A stretch of 64,000 nt of DNA from Parcubacteria group bacterium (lineage in GTDB: Bacteria; Patescibacteriota; Minisyncoccia; 2-02-FULL-40-12), in NCBI GenBank assembly GCA_016186395.1, contig JACPLU010000001.1:5036-69035 (forward strand), given 5' to 3'. Shown here piece by piece: positions 2,798 to 50,662 of this stretch; within the stretch, counting starts at the first letter, position 1; every line of letters begins with the position of its first letter. The position numbers and the translations under genes are program-made. A model generated the notes under the pieces. It did no database searches and had not been told where the DNA came from. It saw only the letters and a program-made list of their open reading frames with translations.

Positions 2798-4045
2798 TTG
2801 GCTATGCCCAAAGGTCACGTAATAACGGGTCTTGATATCGGAAACTCTGCGATCAAAGCTGTGATGGTTGAAATACATCCTGATTTTGCGCGTCCGCAAG
2901 TTATAGGGATCGGTACAGCGACTTCAAATGGTATGAGGCATGGCATGGTGGTAGATATGGAAGAGATAGTAAAGGATTTAGACATAGCGGTAAATCAAGC
3001 GGCTCAAACTTCCGGAGTGAAACCTAATAGGGTTTATGTAAATATTAACGGTTCATATATTAGAACGCAGAATTCCCGAGGAGTTATAGCGGTTTCTCGC
3101 GCAGATAATGAGATTTCCGAAGCGGATGTTCAAAGAGTAATTGAGGCGGCATCGGCAGTAAGCTTACCGCCAAACAGAGAAATACTTCATATTATACCAA
3201 GACATTTTATCGTAGATGGGCATGACCAGGTTAAAAATCCAATAGGTATGACAGGCGTTAGGTTAGAAGCAGAAGTTATGTTAATTGACGTTTTATCGCC
3301 ATATATAAAAAATTTGGCTAAGGCAGTAAATCAAAATAATTTGGAAGTAGCAGAATTTGTTTTTACTCCTCTTGCGGCATCTCGTGCTGTTTTAGATAAG
3401 AAGGCAAGAGAACATGGGGCGATGGTTTTAGATATTGGTGGCGGTTTATGCAGTATGGCGATTTTTGAAGAAGGGGATCTTGTCTATACCGGGGTTTTGC
3501 CTTTAGGTAGCCGGCACATTACAAATGATCTGGCTATTGTACTTAGAACATCTCTAGATAATGCTGAGCAGATAAAATTGGAATATGGGTTTGTCGGTAC
3601 TGACAACCTTTCTAAAAAAGATGTTGTTAACCTCTCGGGGGTTATTGGTGAAGAAGAATTTATTGTTCCTAAAAAACAAATTGCTGAAGTTGTAGAAGCT
3701 CGAGTTTTAGAACTTCTTGATCTTGTAAATAAAGAACTTAAAAGAAGTGGTAAAAATTTATTGCCGGCTGGCGTGATGTTGACCGGCGGTGGTATAAAGC
3801 TTCCAGGCCTGGTTCATTTAGTAAAAGAAACTCTTAAACTGCCGGTGCATCTTGGTATCTCAAAAGAGGTTGACGGCATCGTAAATCGTTTAGACGATTC
3901 TGTTTTTACTACTGCAGTTGGCCTTACATTGTGGGGTGCTGACAAAGAAGGGGCCTATTTAAATAAAAGACATTCTTTTCAGGTGTTTGGCAAGAATGCG
4001 GCTATAAATAAAATGAGGGATTGGTTTAAAAATTTTATGCCCTAG
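2798..4045 (+). CDS. ftsA: Cell division protein FtsA
   Basis: Actin-like ATPase N-terminus (ITGLDIGNSAIKAVMVE), a LDIGGG phosphate loop, and its position immediately upstream of ftsZ. Confidence 0.9.
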   Translation: MAMPKGHVITGLDIGNSAIKAVMVEIHPDFARPQVIGIGTATSNGMRHGMVVDMEEIVKDLDIAVNQAAQTSGVKPNRVYVNINGSYIRTQNSRGVIAVSRADNEISEADVQRVIEAASAVSLPPNREILHIIPRHFIVDGHDQVKNPIGMTGVRLEAEVMLIDVLSPYIKNLAKAVNQNNLEVAEFVFTPLAASRAVLDKKAREHGAMVLDIGGGLCSMAIFEEGDLVYTGVLPLGSRHITNDLAIVLRTSLDNAEQIKLEYGFVGTDNLSKKDVVNLSGVIGEEEFIVPKKQIAEVVEARVLELLDLVNKELKRSGKNLLPAGVMLTGGGIKLPGLVHLVKETLKLPVHLGISKEVDGIVNRLDDSVFTTAVGLTLWGADKEGAYLNKRHSFQVFGKNAAINKMRDWFKNFMP

Positions 4046-4071
4046 TTTCTTAAAACAAGGAAAACTAAAGA

Positions 4072-4098
4072 GGAACGGATTCAAGGTCCGTTTTTGTT
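4072..4098 (+). terminator. Rho-independent terminator after ftsA
   Basis: aacggat-tcaagg-tccgtt hairpin followed by a T-run (tccgtttttgtttg). Confidence 0.5.
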
Positions 4099-4214
4099 TG
4101 TTACTCCTTGCATTGTAAAGTCATGTATGATAATGAATATGAAAACAACGGTTTATGGATTTTGTAACATTTGGATCCAAATGTTAAGTGTTTCTTCATA
4201 AATCGATATAAATA

Positions 4215-5348
4215 GTGCCTCAATTAAAACCTCCTTTTGAAACCTTTGCCCGTATAAAAGTAATTGGTGCCGGTGGTTCCGGAAGTAACGCTATTCAGCG
4301 GATGATAGCTGAAAAAATTCATGGCGTAGAATTAATTGCTGTAAATACTGATGCCCAAGATCTTCATAAGTCCGGGGCACCCACTAAGATTCATATAGGC
4401 AAAAATTTAACCAGAGGTCTTGGAGCTGGTATGAACCCAGAAATTGGACGACAAGCTGCTGAAGAGACTCGTGACGAACTTCACGAAGTTATTAAGGGTG
4501 CTGATATGGTGTTCATAACTTGTGGACTCGGGGGCGGTACTGGAACTGGTGCGGCACCGATAATTGCCGAAGTAGCAAAAGATGCCGGGGCCTTAACCGT
4601 TGCTATTGTTACCAGGCCGTTTAGTTTTGAAGGAGCTCAAAGAGGGAAAATAGCTGAAACTGGGTGGAACCAGTTAAGAGAAAAAGTAGATGCTCTTATT
4701 ACAATTCCAAACGATAGACTTTTATCAATTATAGAAAGAAAAACTCCTTTGCTTGAAGCCTTTAGAATAGTTGATGAAGTTTTGCGTCAGGGGGTTCAGG
4801 GAATATCAGATCTTATTACTACTCCGGGGATAGTTAATGTTGATTTTGCAGACGTTAAGGCAATCATGGCAAACTCTGGTTCAGCTTTAATGGGTATTGG
4901 AAGGGCAACGGGTGAAGATCGTGCTATTGAAGCTGCTAAAGCAGCAATAAATTCTCCGCTTTTAGAAATTTCAATTGATGGTGCGCGTGGAGTGCTATTT
5001 AATGTTGCTGGCGGTTCAGACCTATCTATGGCTGAAATTAACGATGCCGCTAAAGTAATAACAGAATCAATAGATACAGACGCTAAAGTTATTTTTGGTG
5101 CCACTCAAGACGATGGTTTAAAAAAAGGAGAGATTAAGATTACAGTTATAGCAACTGGTTTTGGAAATGGAGGAGTTAAACCAAGGGGTGCTACAAGTTT
5201 TGGATTATTTGAGCAGGAAAATACCAAAACCTCCTTGACACCTTCTCTAAGTAATTCTCAAAATTCTAAAAAAGTAATCGATGATCTAAATTCAGATGAA
5301 GAAGAGTATGATGTTCCGGCGTTTATTCGCCAAAAAATGAAAAAATAG
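4215..5348 (+). CDS. ftsZ: Cell division GTPase FtsZ
   Basis: Tubulin signature [19 protein letters not shown], and the full FtsZ architecture. Confidence 0.95.
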
Positions 5349-12660: not shown

Positions 12661-12720
12661 TTCCTCACCTGTTTTTAGAGAACTAATTTATTGAGGTCAG
12701 TTTAGCCCAAGTATTTTAAA

Positions 12721-12760
12721 AGTCAAACCCCATTCTTGAGTTCAAGAATGGGGTTTGACT
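12721..12760 (-). terminator. 18-bp perfect inverted repeat; terminator of the minus-strand tRNA unit
   Basis: gtcaaaccccattcttga-gt-tcaagaatggggtttgac. Confidence 0.5.
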
Positions 12761-12769
12761 TTTCTTGAT

Positions 12770-13991: not shown

Positions 13992-14408
13992 ATGCCGACA
14001 TTTAATCAACTTTTAAAAAAATCTAAAACTAGAAGAATTTCAAAGGCGAAAACAAAATCGCCCGCTTTATCATTTGGATTCAATACTTTAAAGAATAAAC
14101 CGAGTTTTTATCCAGCGCCGTTTAAAAGAGGGGTTTGTTTGCAAGTGAGAACAACAACGCCAAAAAAACCAAATTCAGCTTTACGTAAAATCGCCAGAGT
14201 GAGATTGACTAACGGAATGGAGGTTACTGCTTATATCCCTGGTGTGGGGCACAATCTTCAAGAACACTCGGTGGTTTTAATAAGAGGAGGCAGGGTTAAA
14301 GATTTACCCGGTGTTCGTTATCATATTGTTAGAGGAGTATACGACTCTGGAGGGGTTGAGGGTCGTAAACAACAAAGATCAAAGTACGGCGCAAAAAGAT
14401 TGAAATAA
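13992..14408 (+). CDS. rpsL: 30S ribosomal protein uS12
   Basis: [36 protein letters not shown]. Confidence 0.95.
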
Positions 14409-14485: not shown

Positions 14486-14953
14486 TTGAGAAGAGGCCCA
14501 ATAACCAAAAAATTGTTAGAACCAGATTTAAAATATCAGAGTTCTTTGGTTACCCGTTTTATAAATTATGTAATGGATTCAGGTAGGAAGTCAGCTGCCA
14601 AAAAGATCGTTTATGGAGCCTTAGCTCACGCTGAAAAAAAAGTTAATAAACCTGCCCTAGAAATTTTAGATGCTGTTATTAAAAATGCCGGTCCGGAACA
14701 GGAACTACGCTCTCGGAGAGTCGGCGGCGCTAATTATCAGGTGCCTCATCCAGTAAACGCGGATAGAAGAGTAACTTTAGCGTATCGTTGGATTATCGCT
14801 GCGGCTCACTCTAAAAAAGGAAAACCAATGTCAGAAAAACTTGCTCAGGAGTTAATTGACGCCTTTAATAATACTGGAATCGCAGTCAAGAAAAAGACAG
14901 ACACACATAAAATGGCCGATGCGAATAAAGCTTTTGCTCATTTTGCGTGGTAG
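14486..14953 (+). CDS. rpsG: 30S ribosomal protein uS7
   Basis: S7 pattern (DSGRKSAAKKIVYGAL...RRVGGANYQVP). Confidence 0.95.
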   Translation: MRRGPITKKLLEPDLKYQSSLVTRFINYVMDSGRKSAAKKIVYGALAHAEKKVNKPALEILDAVIKNAGPEQELRSRRVGGANYQVPHPVNADRRVTLAYRWIIAAAHSKKGKPMSEKLAQELIDAFNNTGIAVKKKTDTHKMADANKAFAHFAW

Positions 14954-14993: not shown

Positions 14994-15198
14994 CTTGATA
15001 AATAATACTCTTTCTCTTTCTTCGCAAACCCCAGCGTGGTTTGCTCAGGGGTTGAGCTCTTTGCTCTTATCCAACTCTTTCTTTTGAAAGAGCTGGGTAA
15101 ACCATGCCCGTCCCGATTTCTGCTCCGCAGAATCGAGGATCCTCGATAGCATCGGGACTACGGGCTCAAAACCCGTTCAAGAGTATTATTCACCAAGT
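14994..15198. mobile_element. MITE-like element, copy 1 (about 205 bp; 19-bp TIR CTTGGTGAATAATACTCTT; palindromic core AATCGAGGATCCTCGATT; central hairpin cassette variant 1)
   Basis: Left end cttgataaataatactctt and right end aagagtattattcaccaag are inverted. Both arms are nearly identical to the inverted arms of the 30098-30317 copy. It is inserted between rpsG and fusA. Confidence 0.8.
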
Positions 15199-15266: not shown

Positions 15267-17381
15267 ATGAGGGACTACCCAATCGAAAAAACTCGTGACA
15301 TAGGAATCATCGCTCACATAGATGCTGGAAAAACTACGGTAAGTGAGCGTGTTTTATTTTATACCGGAGTTTCGCATAAAATAGGCGAGGTGCACGAAGG
15401 AGAAGCAATAATGGATTGGATGGAACAAGAGCGTGAACGTGGTATTACAATTACTGCTGCTGCAACAACGACTTTTTGGATTCCAACTGATAAAACAAAT
15501 GCTCCAGATAGAAAGAATTACGAACATAAAATAAATATTATAGACACTCCAGGACATGTTGATTTTACGGTTGAAGTTGAGCGTTCTTTAAGAGTTTTAG
15601 ATGGAGCCGTAGTTGTTTTTGACGGGGTTGCTGGAGTAGAGCCACAGTCTGAAACTGTTTGGCGTCAAGCAGACAAATATAAAGTTCCCAGGGTATGTTT
15701 TATAAACAAACTAGACAGATTGGGGGCATCTTTTGAGCGTTCTTTTCAATCTATTTTAGATCGTTTAACCCCCAACGCTGTAAGAATGCAAATTCCCGAT
15801 GGACACGAAGATAAATTCTTGGGAGTCGTGGACCTTTTGACAATGAGATATTATACATTTGAGGGAAAGTCTGGAGAAAAGATTGAAGAACATGAAATCC
15901 CCGAAAATCTAAAATTAGACGCAGAAAGATATCATCATGAGTTAGTAGAGAAAATAGTGGAGCAAGACGAAATTTTAATGAATCAATATTTGGAAGGTAA
16001 AGAGCCGTCAACATTGGAATTAATGAGGGTTTTGCGAGATGCGGTTTTAAATTATAAATTAGTTCCTGTATTTTGTGGAGCCGCATTAAGAAATAAGGGA
16101 GTGCAATTTATGTTGGATGCAGTTGTGCATTATTTACCATCGCCGTTAGATGTACCTCCGGTTAGGGGAATTAACGTTAAGACCGGGGAAGAAGAACTAA
16201 GAGAAACAAAAGATGATGCACCTTTTTCAGCCTTAGCATTTAAAGTAGCAACAGACCCATATGTGGGACAGTTAACTTACTTTAGGGTTTACTCGGGGCA
16301 GTTAAAAGCCGGATCGTATGTTTTAAACACTTCGAGCGGTCAACAAGAACGTGTCGGCAGAATTTTACAGATGCATGCCAATGAGAGGAAAGAAATGCAA
16401 GAAGTTTATGCTGGTTATATTGCGGCAACGGTTGGTTTAAAAAGTACAAAAACTGGACACACCCTTTGTGATCCGGAACACCCAGTTAGGTTGGAAGAAA
16501 TTACTTTTCCTGAACCAGTTATTTCTTTAAGAATTGAACCAAGGACTAAGGCTGATCAGGAAAAAATGGGAGTTGCTTTAAAAAGATTATCCGACGAGGA
16601 TCCTACATTTCGTCTTAAGGGAGATGAAGAAACAGGGGATACCATTATTTCAGGAATGGGAGAGTTGCATCTTGAAATAATTGTAGATCGAATGAAAAGA
16701 GAATTTGGGGTTGAGGCGAACGTCGGCCGGCCACAGGTAGCTTATAAGGAAACAATTCAGAAGTTGACTGAAAGTGAAGGGAAATATATTCGTCAATCCG
16801 GAGGCCGCGGACAATATGGACATGTTTGGTTGCGTTTAGAGCCGTTGGAACGAAGTAAGGGGTATGAATTTGTAAATGCTCTTAAAGGTGGAGTTATACC
16901 AAATGAGTTTGTTCCGGCAGTTGAGAAGGGGGTAAAAGAAGCTATAGAAAAAGGAATATTGGCTGGTTACCCGGTGGTAGATGTAAAGGTTACTGTTTAT
17001 GATGGGTCTTATCATGAGGTTGATTCGTCAGAAATGGCATTCAAGATTGCCTCCTCCATTTCTTTTCAGGAAGGAGCAAAAAGAGCCAATCCAATTATTT
17101 TGGAGCCCATTATGAAGGTTGAAGTTATAATGCCGGATTCGTTTTTGGGTGAGGTAACTGGGGATCTTAATTCCAGGAGAGGTCAAATTTTCAATATAGG
17201 CGATAGAACGGGCTTGAATCTAAAAGTTATTGATGCTAAAGTGCCATTGGCTGAAATGTTTGGTTATGCAACGACTATAAGGTCTTTAACTGAAGGTCGT
17301 GGAACATTTACGATGGAGTTTGGCAATTACGAACCAGTTCCAGCAAGTATCGTACAGCAGATCGTAGAGGGGAAGAAGTAA
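15267..17381 (+). CDS. fusA: Elongation factor G
   Basis: G1 [17 protein letters not shown], and full EF-G length with domains IV and V. Confidence 0.97.
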
Positions 17382-17389
17382 GTTTTTGT

Positions 17390-17677
17390 CTGAACACAGT
17401 GACTTGTGATGAGCTTGCTTGCCCTGAACTTGTTGAAGGGGTTGAATCAAACGAGCACAGTTATAAAAAGTTACCCAGCCCCACTTTTACTATTTGAATA
17501 ACGGCAATTTAAAGCTTTAAATTGCCGGGCTAAATGGCCTTATATAATCTTTTAGTAGTAAGTTCATATTGCAATGGTAAAAGTGGAGCTGGGTGCGGAT
17601 AACTGTGGTTATTCGCTTCCTAAAACATTTTTCAAATGTTCGGGCTAGTCCGTGCGTAGGCACTACGCCCTAGGACG
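17390..17677 (+). other. Non-coding structured segment between fusA and tuf
   Basis: acccagccccacttttac (17472-17490) pairs with gtaaaagtggagctgggt (17578-17596). It encloses the perfect hairpin cggcaatttaaag/ctttaaattgccg. A further GC-rich hairpin is gcgtaggcactacgc. Confidence 0.4.
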
Positions 17678-17706
17678 ATCATTATTCAATATAATTGAAT
17701 AATGAT
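17678..17706. promoter_or_regulatory. 29-bp operator-like palindrome (13-bp perfect arms, 3-bp spacer), 26 bp upstream of ORF 17732
   Basis: atcattattcaat-ata-attgaataatgat. Confidence 0.5.
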
Positions 17707-17731
17707 TTAGTCGCTCATAAACATTTATCGC

Positions 17732-18112
17732 ATGCTAACTAAGGAATTACAAAATTTAACTGATAAATTGGGAGGTGTGGTTTTGGTTGAGGATGGTAAC
17801 CCTAAATTTGTTTTACTTTCATATAAGAAATTTAATGAATTATCTGGTGGTAATGGACTTGAGCCACATAATGATCCAACAATAGTCGCCCACGAATCAA
17901 TTAATAGTGGGTTTGAACATGTAAGTTCGGGAATCTCCAACAAACAAAACGAATTAGTAAATTTGTATCAGACAAACAGAACAGAACCTGTAATAATTGA
18001 GGACGGTGAATTAATTGAAAGATTAAACAAAGAGATTATGACCCTAAAAGAAGAAATTGAAGCAAAAGAGAAAGAGCTTGGTTTAACGGCGGATGTGGAG
18101 AGTATTGGATGA
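17732..18112 (+). CDS. Small hypothetical protein: Phd/YefM-antitoxin-like N-terminus plus C-terminal coiled coil
   Basis: N-terminus LTKELQNLTDKLGGVVLVEDGNPKFVLLSYKKFNEL resembles the Phd/YefM fold pattern. C-terminus LIERLNKEIMTLKEEIEAKEKEL. No toxin partner is present. Confidence 0.4.
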   Translation: MLTKELQNLTDKLGGVVLVEDGNPKFVLLSYKKFNELSGGNGLEPHNDPTIVAHESINSGFEHVSSGISNKQNELVNLYQTNRTEPVIIEDGELIERLNKEIMTLKEEIEAKEKELGLTADVESIG

Positions 18113-18247
18113 GGATAAAAGAATGTTTGACGGTTTATTTTTTCCTGTTATAATAACATAGGAATTACTTCTATATATAAAGACAAAGGGATGGAAACAA
18201 GGGGCAAAGCCGTTTGTTCTCTATTACCTGTCGCTTAAAGCTCATTT

Positions 18248-19450
18248 ATGCCAGAAAAATTTGAAAGGAATAAACCACATATGAATGTCGGAACCGTTGG
18301 TCATGTTGACCATGGAAAGACTACATTAACTGCGTCAATTTTACATGTCGCTAATTTGTTATCTGGCCAAGGCTATAAAGCCAGAGTCGAGGGGGTCAAT
18401 GATATTGATAATGCTCCAGAAGAAAAAGCTCGAGGTATTACTATTGCCCTTCACCATTCCGAATACGAAACACCCAAAAGGCATTATGCGCACGTAGATG
18501 CTCCTGGGCATGCAGATTATATCAAAAATATGATAACCGGTGCCGCTCAAATGGACGGTGCGGTTTTAGTTGTGTCAGCCGCAGATGGCCCAATGCCTCA
18601 AACAAGGGAACACATTCTTTTGGCTCGTCAGGTTGGTGTGCCATCAATTGTTGTATTTTTAAATAAAGCTGATCAAGTTTCTGACCCGGAGCTTATTGAT
18701 CTTGTAGAAACTGAAGTTAGAGAGCTTTTGAATAAGTATCAATTTCCTGGTAACGAGACCCCAATTATTAGAGGTTCAGCGCTTAAAGCATTAGAGGCAA
18801 AGTCTGCTGACGACGAAGCAGTTAAACCAATTAAACAACTTTTAGACACATTAGATTCTTACATGCCTGAACCGGTTCGAGATATGGATAAGCCATTTTT
18901 AATGCCAATTGAAGATATTTTTTCTATTGAAGGCCGAGGCACTGTAGTTACCGGAAAAGCGGAAAGAGGAAAACTAAAGTTAAATGATACTGTTGAGATT
19001 GTGGGTCTTAAGCCAACTCAAAATACTGTAATTACTGGAGTTGAAATGTTTAATAAACAGATGGATGAAACTATTGCTGGAGATAATGTTGGTTTATTAT
19101 TGCGTGGTTTGAAAAAAGAAGACGTAATGAGAGGACAAGTACTTGCCGCTCCTGGTTCTATAACTCCTCATACCGAATTTGACGCGGAGGTTTATATTTT
19201 AACCAAAGAAGAAGGCGGAAGACACACCCCATTTTTTAAGGGTTATAAACCCCAATTTTATGTAAGAACTACAGATGTAACTGGAGAAGTGATTTTACCA
19301 GAAGGTACTGAAATGGTAATGCCAGGAGATACCGTAAATTTGAAGATTAAATTAATTGCTCCGATTGCCTTAGAGGTAAAGATGAGATTTGCCATAAGAG
19401 AGGGGGGTAAAACTGTTGGTGCCGGAGTGGTTACAAAGATTACAGCGTAA
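18248..19450 (+). CDS. tuf: Elongation factor Tu
   Basis: [40 protein letters not shown]. Confidence 0.97.
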
Positions 19451-30100: not shown

Positions 30101-30317
30101 AAGTGGGCTTGGTGAATAATACTCTTGAACGGGTTTTGAGCCCGTAGTCCCGATGCTATCGAGGATCCTCGATTCTGCGGAGCAGAAATCGGGACGGGCA
30201 TGGTTTTCTCTGTCTGGATTTACAGTCCAGATAGAGAAAGAGCGAAGGGCTCAACCCCTGAGCAAACCACGCTGGGGTTTGCGAAGAAAGAGAAAGAGTA
30301 TTATTCACCAAGCTCAC
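30098..30317. mobile_element. MITE-like element, copy 2 (inverted relative to copy 1; central cassette variant 2), inserted between rplO and secY
   Basis: cttggtgaataatactctt...aagagtattattcaccaag. The arms are the reverse complement of copy 1's arms. The central 45 bp differ and form an 11-bp hairpin (ctctatctgga/tccagacagag). Confidence 0.85.
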
Positions 30318-30367
30318 GAGTTGCTGCTTGACCATCAATAATTATAGTTTAGTTAAATTAATATTAT

Positions 30368-39141: not shown

Positions 39142-39149
39142 TTTTATAT

Positions 39150-39440
39150 GGTAGATCGGGTGATTGCCTTGATGTCATAGTCAGGGAGGAAAGTCCGAAC
39201 ACTCACCTAGCGCTTTCATTGAAAGAGCTGGGTAAAATGGTAGCAGGTAACGCCTGCCATGCAAAAGCATAGAGGTGCGAACAGTGACGTCTGCGGCGCA
39301 AGCCAAAGAGAGCCCAATCCCAAGCTAGTAGGCTTAACTCCGTTATAGGGACAAAAAAACGGAGGTGAAACGAGTATTGCTATGGTAACATGGCGATCCG
39401 CTAAATCCTTACCTGGGTGCAAGATCAAACTTGATAATTT
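39150..39440 (+). ncRNA. rnpB: RNase P RNA (reduced bacterial type); boundaries approximate
   Basis: GGGAGGAAAGTCCGAAC (P4 5' strand signature), GCAGGTAACGCCTGC, GGAGGTGAAACG, AACTCCG motifs in the canonical order. Confidence 0.6.
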
Positions 39441-39550
39441 TTAAAGATTATCAAAGGAACGTAGATCGCATTGAGGCTCGATGGCGACATCGGCCCCAGA
39501 TAAATAATCACACAAATACAGAATTCGGCTTATAGATCTACCACAATCTC

Positions 39551-39577
39551 AAAGCCCCGACATTATGTCGGGGCTTT
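39551..39577 (+). terminator. Rho-independent terminator
   Basis: agccccgaca-tta-tgtcggggcttt. Confidence 0.55.
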
Positions 39578-39722
39578 GACTATCTAAATAATTTGTGGGA
39601 GATTGTTAGGTACTCAAATAATTATGAATCCCGTTAGGAGTACCCATCCAAACAATCTTCTAAAAAACAGCTATTATGAAAAATATTACCAAGTTACAAT
39701 ATAGGTTAATAATAAAACGGAT

Positions 39723-50290: not shown

Positions 50291-50313
50291 CCGACGATTA
50301 ACGTCGGTATTTT
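50291..50313 (+). terminator. Rho-independent terminator
   Basis: ccgacg-attaa-cgtcgg followed by tatttt. Confidence 0.6.
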
Positions 50314-50340
50314 AATTGATTTTTAGCTTTTTCAGTGTTA

Positions 50341-50460
50341 AATTATATCTAGATTTGCCGATGTAGTCCCGATTTTGCTCTGCAAAATCGAGGATCCTCG
50401 ATGGCAAAGCCGTCGGGACTCAACGGCAGAGTCCCGACTTTGTCGAGGATCCTCGATTAT
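50341..50460. repeat. Nested palindromic element related to the MITE core (two copies of TCGAGGATCCTCGA with GTCCCGA/TCGGGAC-type arms), immediately upstream of tRNA-Thr
   Basis: gattttgc-tct-gcaaaatc, atcgaggatcctcgat, gtcgggact-N9-agtcccgac, tcgaggatcctcga. Confidence 0.65.
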
Positions 50461-50474
50461 TAGCAGAACTTAGA

Positions 50475-50546
50475 GCCGGCATAGCTCAGTGGTAGAGCAA
50501 CTGTTTTGTAAACAGTAGGTCGTCAGTTCAAATCTGACTGCCGGCT
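50475..50546 (+). tRNA. tRNA-Thr (anticodon UGU)
   Basis: Acceptor GCCGGCA/TGCCGGC, D-arm GCTC-AGTGGTA-GAGC, anticodon stem ACTGT/ACAGT with loop TTTGTAA, T-arm GTCAG-TTCAAAT-CTGAC. Confidence 0.85.
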
Positions 50547-50662
50547 CTAAGTTCTGGATAATCGGGGCAACGCTTTTGTAAAGCGAAGGTTCCGAGTTCA
50601 AGTCTCAGGGTCGGCTCTAACGGGATAAATAGGTTATGGGTTCAAATTCCTCTGTCGGCTTG
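50547..50662 (+). pseudogene. Two tandem degenerate tRNA-Thr-derived remnants (one near full length with intact anticodon loop and T-arm but an unpaired acceptor; one 3'-half only)
   Basis: ...ACGCTTTTGTAAAGCG...CCGAGTTCAAGTCTCAGGGTCGGCTCT, then ...ATGGGTTCAAATTCCTCTGTCGGCTTG. Both end in the (T/G)CGGCT(C/T)T acceptor-like tail of the intact gene. Confidence 0.55.

Follow-up and report, generated by a model that had tools for sequence, protein, structure and literature searches.

Results

The 866 nt that separate fusA from tuf in a stretch of 64,000 nucleotides from a Parcubacteria group bacterium (hereafter the window; assembly GCA_016186395.1, contig JACPLU010000001.1) are, in our judgment, quite probably made up of two independent features: a conserved gene at 17732-18112 and a young insertion at 17382-17731. 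The insertion is a hairpin-rich, strain-specific segment of 350 nt that fills the forward strand from the stop codon of fusA to the start of the open reading frame (ORF) downstream. An earlier note on this DNA had grouped the structured segment, the palindrome and the ORF as an insert between fusA and tuf; the separation of 866 bp that it gave is right (fusA stops at 17381 and tuf starts at 18248, leaving 866 nt), but the ORF does not belong to any insert, being a conserved gene that throughout Patescibacteria keeps a fixed place upstream of tuf.

The evidence that divides the gap in two comes from close relatives. The ORF has a sole close homologue in a word-indexed protein search (P0001, 90% amino acid identity), and this is encoded on two short metagenome contigs, L001 and L002, whose alignment to the window shows 94% identity over fusA and 93% from the ATG of the ORF into tuf. 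At the junction they read ...AAATAG-AA-ATGCTAAC..., i.e., the TAG of fusA, AA, and the ATG of the ORF, with all 350 nt missing. Since L001 and L002 align on both sides and have TAG-AA-ATG alone between, the segment 17382-17731, with its long helix and both of its palindromes, is an indel. The fusA/ORF junction is compact in more distant relatives as well (8 nt in L011, 10 nt in the P0127 contig), and therefore the state seen in the window is the derived one, an insertion. L003 and L004, in contrast to L001 and L002, show no difference from the window, so that presence and absence of the insertion differ among close relatives at one site. The structured segment and the palindrome at 17678-17706 are missing from every other family locus examined.

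The Gene and Its Family

The ORF (17732-18112, forward strand) encodes an acidic protein of 126 amino acids (isoelectric point [pI] 4.6), deposited as MBI2626644.1, "hypothetical protein." Compared with L001 it shows 18 synonymous and 13 nonsynonymous codon differences, with 6/7/21 changes at the three codon positions, and a ratio of nonsynonymous to synonymous substitution rates (dN/dS) of 0.135 overall, 0.09 in the N-domain, 0.08 in the C-terminal part and 0.205 in the linker. Judged by this pattern of substitution, the ORF is a real gene under purifying selection. The word-indexed search with the single ORF returned one cluster only, and it was the full HMMER scan that brought out a family: against 1.84e9 representatives, phmmer/HMMER finds 48 relatives at E≤1e-3, all of 74-138 amino acids and all with the same bipartite layout, and a profile search extends the family to at least 250 clusters. 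That the ORF might be a spurious frame in a noncoding spacer, as the single close homologue in the word-indexed search, the lack of a Pfam domain and the lack of a Shine-Dalgarno sequence could suggest, has virtually no chance of being correct; it is refuted by the dN/dS, the HMMER family and the profile search, with their conserved motifs and fixed position. A Shine-Dalgarno-like motif precedes 9 of the 40 ATG starts of the window; most genes here lack one, and its absence before the ORF is therefore uninformative.

In the family alignment the N-terminal part reads M.i.ELk.L....GGvvV...g.P.FVvLsYekY.eL and the C-terminal part, which follows a variable acidic linker (8-75 amino acids, mean net charge -2), reads iE.LNKEILALKEEI..kE. 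The proteins are uniformly acidic, with pI values of 4.2-6.0 and a mean net charge of -0.9 in the N-domain. Few members carry a source name; among the matches listed, every such entry is a "hypothetical protein," and the sources are Yanofskybacteria, the Parcubacteria group or an unclassified "bacterium." Metagenome-assembled genomes (MAGs) labelled Saccharibacteria and Patescibacteria join these through the family's genome loci, and wherever a source names the organism, it is one of the Patescibacteria. The family is unannotated, standing outside Pfam, NCBIfam, the functional annotation of PHROG, and PADLOC.

Synteny could be read in 16 lineages, namely the window, L001/L002, L005-L010, L011-L013, the P0127 contig, L153-L155 and L157, and in all 16 the family gene is the next gene 5′ of tuf and shares its strand. 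Gaps measured between the two genes span 76-267 nt, except in L005, a MAG labelled Saccharibacteria, where the spacer is 611 nt long (4018-4628) and, by eye, appears to hold an extra ORF resembling a retropepsin-like aspartic protease. The upstream neighbor is fusA in most Parcubacteria-type loci and unrelated cargo in some. A divergent rpsF-ssb-rpsR cluster lies upstream in L006, L008 and L009, in L006 with a peroxiredoxin gene between. The comparison of synteny suggested by the earlier note has thus found the ORF to be kept 5′ of tuf and the palindrome to be missing from the relatives.

A promoter belonging to the family gene itself is present in L006-L010; exactly 6 nt separate the end of its -10 element (TATAAA, TATAAG or TATACC) from the ATG, a spacing that suggests leaderless transcripts. 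Downstream of the gene, the window has a promoter for tuf at 18127-18154 on the forward strand, TTGACG-16 nt-TATAAT with a TG extension, which agrees with the consensus at 11 of 12 positions and is conserved in L001; most loci have a comparable tuf promoter in the spacer that follows the family gene. Genetic work on Saccharibacteria has employed the tuf upstream region as a strong promoter (PMC10633639). A short palindrome, TGTTAT-A-ATAACA (18146-18158), overlaps the tuf -10 element of the window and has one mismatch in L001 (ATAGCA), and no equivalent was seen at the tuf promoters of other loci.

The Predicted Protein

AlphaFold2, given the family alignment, predicts two ordered parts joined by a disordered region at residues 38-90; without the alignment, the predicted local distance difference test score (pLDDT) is 45. 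The N-domain (residues 1-38; 17732-17845, forward strand) has pLDDT values of 81-92 and consists of a helix (2-13), two strands (15-20 and 23-29) and a second helix (31-37). The acidic linker (residues 39-90; 17846-18001, forward strand) is predicted to be disordered, with pLDDT near 50 or lower. The protein ends in an amphipathic helix, LIERLNKEIMTLKEEIEAKEKEL (residues 91-115; 18002-18076, forward strand; pLDDT 85-92), that bears no substitution relative to L001. Across the family its N99 is invariant, conservation is 90% or higher at L98, I102, L105 and E113, and the motif is LNKEIxxLKEEI, which corresponds to no known toxin-binding region and is matched by no Pfam or NCBIfam model. A search of PDB sequences with the full-length family profile was set aside, since it returned coiled-coil noise only (e.g., Get1).

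In the predicted model, the core of the N-domain (helix, β-hairpin, helix) superposes only on the Phd/YefM family in PDB40, and the α2-β2-β3-α3 arrangement of the Phd/YefM core fold is present. PF02604 is matched by 21 of 49 members, with a best E value of 2.1e-5, and is the top match for 10 of the 10 members tested, aligned from profile position 13/18 to 51 of 74; TIGR01552 (phd_fam) is matched by 15 of 49. The window protein itself matches TIGR01552 at E 0.0098 (15.2 bits vs. a cutoff of 20.8) and a PHROG antitoxin family at E 0.015. Members start 2-3 residues before profile position 13-18 of PF02604, so that β1 and most of α1 are missing, and it is in this β1/α1 segment that the base-reading residues Arg10-Gln11 lie in the YefM-DNA structure (PMC7544224). 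As modelled, then, the N-domain is a truncated α-β-β-α domain related to the Phd/YefM antitoxin fold. The earlier note had proposed a Phd/YefM-like N terminus and a coiled-coil C terminus for this protein: the first is borne out by the family matches to PF02604 and TIGR01552 and by the AlphaFold2 model, though in truncated form, and the heptad pattern of the final helix supports the second.

Several results weigh against the fold assignment. The PF02604 scores of ten members (14.6-24.7 bits) fall below the curated cutoff of 29.8, and no family member reaches a curated cutoff of Pfam or NCBIfam. The Pfam search of the 126-amino acid protein that had been suggested gives no match to PF02604 at E≤10 for that protein, the family being the top match for its relatives instead. 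A profile of the N-domain found no Phd/YefM chain among PDB sequences; hhalign against YefM was weak, with E 1.3e-3 and a probability of 18%, and against Phd it gave nothing.

A Phd/YefM-like domain raises two further explanations. Doc, the partner of Phd, phosphorylates EF-Tu, and the ORF product might be a working type II antitoxin whose toxin acts in trans (e.g., a Doc/Fic-type kinase targeting EF-Tu), in which case the position next to tuf would be incidental. We find this highly doubtful. The fold, and a disordered region leading into a C-terminal helix that resembles the toxin-binding tails of antitoxins (for the architecture, see PMC7544224), speak for it; against it, a toxin gene is adjacent in none of the 16 informative loci, as the earlier note had already remarked for this gap, a scan of the window in all frames shows no Fic/Doc motif, and PADLOC gives no match. 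Moreover, the strictness with which the gene has stayed beside tuf over deep lineages sets it apart from mobile toxin-antitoxin genes, and L155 carries a real toxin-antitoxin pair (MNT/HepT) nearby as separate cargo.

The second explanation is the one put forward in the earlier note, that the ORF encodes an autoregulated, orphan antitoxin-like DNA-binding protein with the palindrome at 17678-17706 as an operator overlapping its promoter. This palindrome, ATCATTATTCAAT-ATA-ATTGAATAATGAT, does have perfect 13-bp arms and the ATA spacer ascribed to it, and it ends 25 nt, rather than 26, before the ATG at 17732. Perfect repeats of this kind are rare: the 64 kb hold four with arms of 13 bp or longer, two of them inside 17382-17731, against approximately 0.05 per window in shuffled controls (n=20). 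(The remaining two, at 12718-12763 with 22-bp arms and at 39549-39579 with 15-bp arms, are probably terminators; the latter starts right after the RNase P RNA gene at 39148-39548.) YefM dimers bind palindromic operators (PMC7544224), and the candidate -35 element pointed out earlier, TTGAAT at 17695-17700, exists and lies in the right arm. Its best -10 partner is poor (TAAACA), however, and the promoter scan of the insertion reported nothing. Since the palindrome sits within an insertion that sister strains lack while keeping the ORF under selection, it is not a conserved operator of the ORF. None of the other family loci has it; the 160 nt that precede the family gene in L005-L010 hold no inverted repeat of 7 bp or longer, and these loci include the five in which the gene has its own promoter (0/5); and no operator-like palindrome is common to the regions upstream of the family gene or to the tuf promoters. 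The segment that carries Arg10-Gln11, whose role is known from YefM (PMC7544224), is missing, and the family is acidic (pI 4.2-6.0, mean N-domain net charge -0.9). Autoregulation through this palindrome is consequently very unlikely as a conserved mechanism, and as an account of the locus we would give it hardly any weight.

The Insertion

The 350 nt fold, as RNA, with a minimum free energy of -124.1 kcal/mol and z=-8.6 relative to dinucleotide shuffles (z=-7.6 in a separate run). On the forward strand, nested long-range helices formed by pairs of inverted repeats occupy 17444-17619 in both the minimum free energy and the centroid structure. The outer helix pairs 17444-17464 with 17599-17619. 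The inner one is the long-range helix of 18 bp that the earlier note had seen; it is present and does enclose a perfect hairpin, but its arms are longer, at 28 nt each (17473-17500 and 17567-17594; 86% complementary). The hairpin within is a perfect palindrome, CGGCAATTTAAAG/CTTTAAATTGCCG, at 17502-17527, with 13-bp arms and no spacer. The ends of the insertion pair only via GATGAGC/GCTCAT and short stems. No terminator-like site was found in the insertion, and Rfam 15 places no family at gathering score in 17382-18247, where matches at E≤10 were limited to small nucleolar RNA and microRNA noise of 18-20 bits. The insertion has no second copy in the window by self-BLAST of the gap and no match by BLAST in phage and plasmid records; an exact-pattern scan of viral contigs with two of its segments gave 0 matches, as did one of JGI metagenome contigs with the 24-nt core of the palindrome at 17502-17527.

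The flanks indicate how the segment may have arrived. The identity of fusA to L001 is 53-60 of 60 positions per bin, declining toward the 3′ end to 48/60 and 18/30; synonymous divergence over the last 30 codons (~90 nt) is 1.13 versus 0.22 upstream, a difference of about fivefold, and on the other flank, in the ORF, divergence is at background level. To judge from this asymmetry, the insertion was probably acquired by recombination with a more distant relative, which brought with it a short tract of the fusA 3′ end. Aligned with the empty site, the insertion shows neither a flanking direct repeat or target-site duplication nor terminal inverted repeats. Its right border was inspected for a leftover of the former fusA 3′ end, which would point to an integrative element, and none was seen.

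Elsewhere the same junction holds unrelated filler of 198 nt to 2.3 kb that differs by lineage: an extra ORF of 77 amino acids in L012; 291 nt with GTCCCGAT/TCGAGGATCCTCGA hairpins and a fold z of -11.7 in L013; 198 nt in L157; 337 nt in L156; about 1 kb each in L153 and L154; and 2.3 kb with the MNT/HepT pair in L155. In L155 this toxin-antitoxin pair (NTP_transf_2 plus HepT-like; 951-1735) is accompanied by two more ORFs between fusA and the family gene, so the junction accepts coding cargo too.

The 5′ module of the insertion, at 17400-17448 on the forward strand, is itself one copy of an intergenic repeat with a dispersed distribution. Its core 19-mer, CCCTGAACTTGTTGAAGGG (17422-17440), agrees at 17 of 19 positions with CCCTGAGCTTGTCGAAGGG, and both differences are transitions toward A/T. 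The sequence CCCTGAGCTTGTCGAAGGG occurs in at least 120 IMG/VR viral contigs (L014-L133) of very different composition, both between and within genes; among the matches listed, it usually has CCGTTCG in front, and about 30% are hairpin-paired with an inverted partner, TTCGACARGCTCA. Rfam gives this repeat one match, below threshold (AaHKsRNA41), and a search of the literature for it, as a DNA motif or as its spurious peptides, found nothing relevant and no name. The exact AT-variant 20-mer is found in 19 metagenome contigs, mostly of low G+C content and with the same GCTTG flank; L151 shares 49 nt with the window module at 90% identity. In the window copy the repeat reads TTGCCC-17 nt-TTGAAT, which is weakly promoter-like, TTGAAT being poor as a -10 element, and no inverted partner occurs within 3 mismatches. 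Other AT variants, which follow a terminator-like T run in L141, L143 and L152, read TTGCCC-17 nt-TA(G/T/A)A(A/C/G)T, and the two copies in L152 have TTGCCC-17 nt-TAGAAT-8 nt-ATG before ORFs of 211 and 252 amino acids. The variant was also noted in L146, a low-G+C contig. It looks like a reused or mobile promoter.

Strong folding is common between genes in this genome: of 31 window spacers tested, 12 fold at z≤-5. The other three at z≤-7.5 all carry a second palindromic repeat, GTCCCGAT...TCGAGGATCCTCGA...ATCGGGAC, at 15110-15158 in the rpsG-fusA spacer (z=-7.7), at 30147-30195 (spacer 30101-30367, z=-10.6) and at 50366-50456 (spacer 50291-50474, z=-7.5). It recurs in other Parcubacteria (L013, 3215-3466; L153, ~2005-2095) and was not found in viral contigs. 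In L153 it lies within the 3′ end of fusA, and the displaced remnant codes for ...EIVPQNTAQQIIEGKK*.

Our reading of 17382-17731 is that repeat DNA rich in hairpins has recently settled at a junction open to filler, and that the segment is not a dedicated regulatory RNA. It counts against this reading that the insertion as a whole was found nowhere else and that it has neither terminal inverted repeats nor a target duplication; to call it a mobile repeat draws on the polymorphism of its presence, the 49-nt module and analogy. The reading that competes with it holds that the insert is an RNA cassette in which the module at 17400-17448 promotes an RNA of about 250 nt (~17455-17710), either a small RNA or a 5′ leader of the ORF, ending at the AT-rich hairpin 17678-17706. 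The extreme fold z and the pairing of 5′ and 3′ parts, which closes the structure, fit such an RNA, as do the same repeat at promoter position before the ORFs of L152 and its place after terminators in L141, L143 and L152; the coupling of fusA to the ORF has also been broken by the insertion, and the ORF may need a new route of expression. We nevertheless think an RNA cassette unlikely. The -10 element TTGAAT lacks the A at position 2, and the 8/12 match falls under the scan threshold; there is no terminator-like site and no Rfam family; the body of the insert has no homologue in the collections searched, and hence there is no covariation evidence; and many spacers of this genome are equally structured through dispersed hairpin repeats.

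The Surrounding Locus

The gene order around the gap is rpsL (13992-14408), rpsG (14486-14953), fusA (15267-17381), the 866-nt gap, tuf (18248-19450), rpsJ and rplC. The genome is of low G+C content, and the forward strand, which carries fusA and tuf, also carries nearly all of the genes. Proteins of this part of the window correspond to NCBI entries MBI2626641-45 on an 85.4-kb contig of a Parcubacteria-group MAG. EF-G, the fusA product, has 704 amino acids (MBI2626643.1, "elongation factor G"), and the divergent last 30 codons of its gene lie at 17292-17381; EF-Tu, the tuf product, has 400. Elsewhere in the window, ARAGORN calls two overlapping tRNA-Thr(tgt) genes, at 50475-50547 and 50540-50617, the second with its anticodon at position 38; Rfam reports tRNA-Thr at 50475-50547 only and not the overlapping call at 50540-50617.

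Discussion

What is new here is a toxin-less, truncated variant of a known fold that has acquired a new C-terminal module and is fixed in a core translation locus; the insertion next to it is itself an ordinary kind of thing. We suggest that the ORF protein is a domesticated antitoxin-fold protein, a regulator or adaptor wired into the translation locus and tied to tuf or EF-Tu. The family gene would be expressed as the last of rpsL-rpsG-fusA or, where it is solitary, from a promoter of the leaderless type, with tuf normally having a strong promoter of its own after it. The protein could dimerize through its Phd/YefM-type domain, and the C-terminal helix may bind a conserved partner in the way that the C-terminal region of an antitoxin binds its toxin, an extrapolation from the antitoxin architecture. 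Because linkage to tuf is strict, this partner is likely to be connected with the production or function of EF-Tu. It must be held against the proposal that the function of the protein is inferred entirely.

On sequence grounds, a protein-binding adaptor or regulator seems somewhat more likely to us than operator binding in the style of YefM, because the family is without the DNA-reading head, its N-domain is on average slightly negative, and it shows no conserved operator-like repeat. Our preference is weak. If expectations are divided roughly, about a third falls to protein binding, a quarter to DNA binding and the rest to something else. A more specific possibility is that the family is a Patescibacteria-specific partner of translation elongation, whose tethered helix binds EF-Tu, another translational GTPase or a ribosomal site, tuning or protecting it. 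We raise this speculatively and see it as a rather slim chance. Since Doc, the classical partner of Phd, inactivates EF-Tu, the pairing of fold and target may be no coincidence.

In the strains that have it, the insertion is presumably cotranscribed with the str operon, and it would put a long structured spacer in place of the translational coupling across 2 nt that fusA and the ORF have in the sister strains. The palindromes would belong to the inserted element and not be operators of the ORF.

Patescibacteria, also called the Candidate Phyla Radiation (CPR), possess tiny genomes, and a gene that has stayed in place over a range running from Parcubacteria to Saccharibacteria-labelled MAGs is probably not dispensable. 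The family would exemplify an antitoxin fold recruited, without a toxin, into the organization of housekeeping genes. It lends itself to direct tests in the genetically tractable Saccharibacteria (PMC10633639), where the promoter region upstream of tuf borders the family gene in the loci examined. There is also a lesson for annotation: striking palindromes and high fold z scores in CPR spacers can reflect young repeat insertions, and a single comparison with a sister strain can be enough to tell such insertions from conserved regulatory elements.

Comparison with Known Systems

The nearest known relatives of the protein are the Phd/YefM antitoxins (PF02604 and TIGR01552; e.g., P1 Phd, the YefM proteins of E. 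coli and S. aureus, and 2odk of N. europaea). The core of the N-domain is the same, the family shares the sequence pattern ..GxxVxVxxxGxPxFVvLsYxxYxxL, and the protein resembles these antitoxins in its small size, its acidity and a disordered second half with a helix at the end. Unlike them, members of the family lack β1 and most of α1 and score below threshold, have no adjacent toxin, stand 5′ of tuf in 16 of 16 lineages and possess a C-terminal motif of their own, LNKEIxxLKEEI. Nor does a palindromic operator appear in the promoter of the family gene, the palindromes of the window being strain specific and L005-L010 having no inverted repeat of 7 bp or longer in the 160 nt before the gene.

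Small palindromic repeats and miniature inverted-repeat transposable elements (MITEs) are known to insert between the genes of operons, the REP/BIME, ERIC, Correia/NEMIS and RUP/BOX elements among them. The insertion departs from these in that one copy of the 350-nt unit was found in the window and the collections searched, the 49-nt 5′ module alone recurring, in that it has no recognizable terminal inverted repeats or target-site duplication, and in that it came with a flanking recombination tract and not by clean transposition. It resembles them in being short, noncoding and built of nested hairpins, in lying between cistrons of a transcribed operon, in being present or absent among close strains, and in belonging to a genome whose spacers hold other dispersed hairpin repeats.

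Its 5′ module can in turn be compared with the widespread repeat CCGTTCG-CCCTGAGCTTGTCGAAGGG-C. The window copy differs from that repeat in lacking an inverted partner and in being embedded in a larger, unrelated structure; its core nevertheless matches at 17 of 19 positions, and the AT variant is found in identical form in low-GC contigs.

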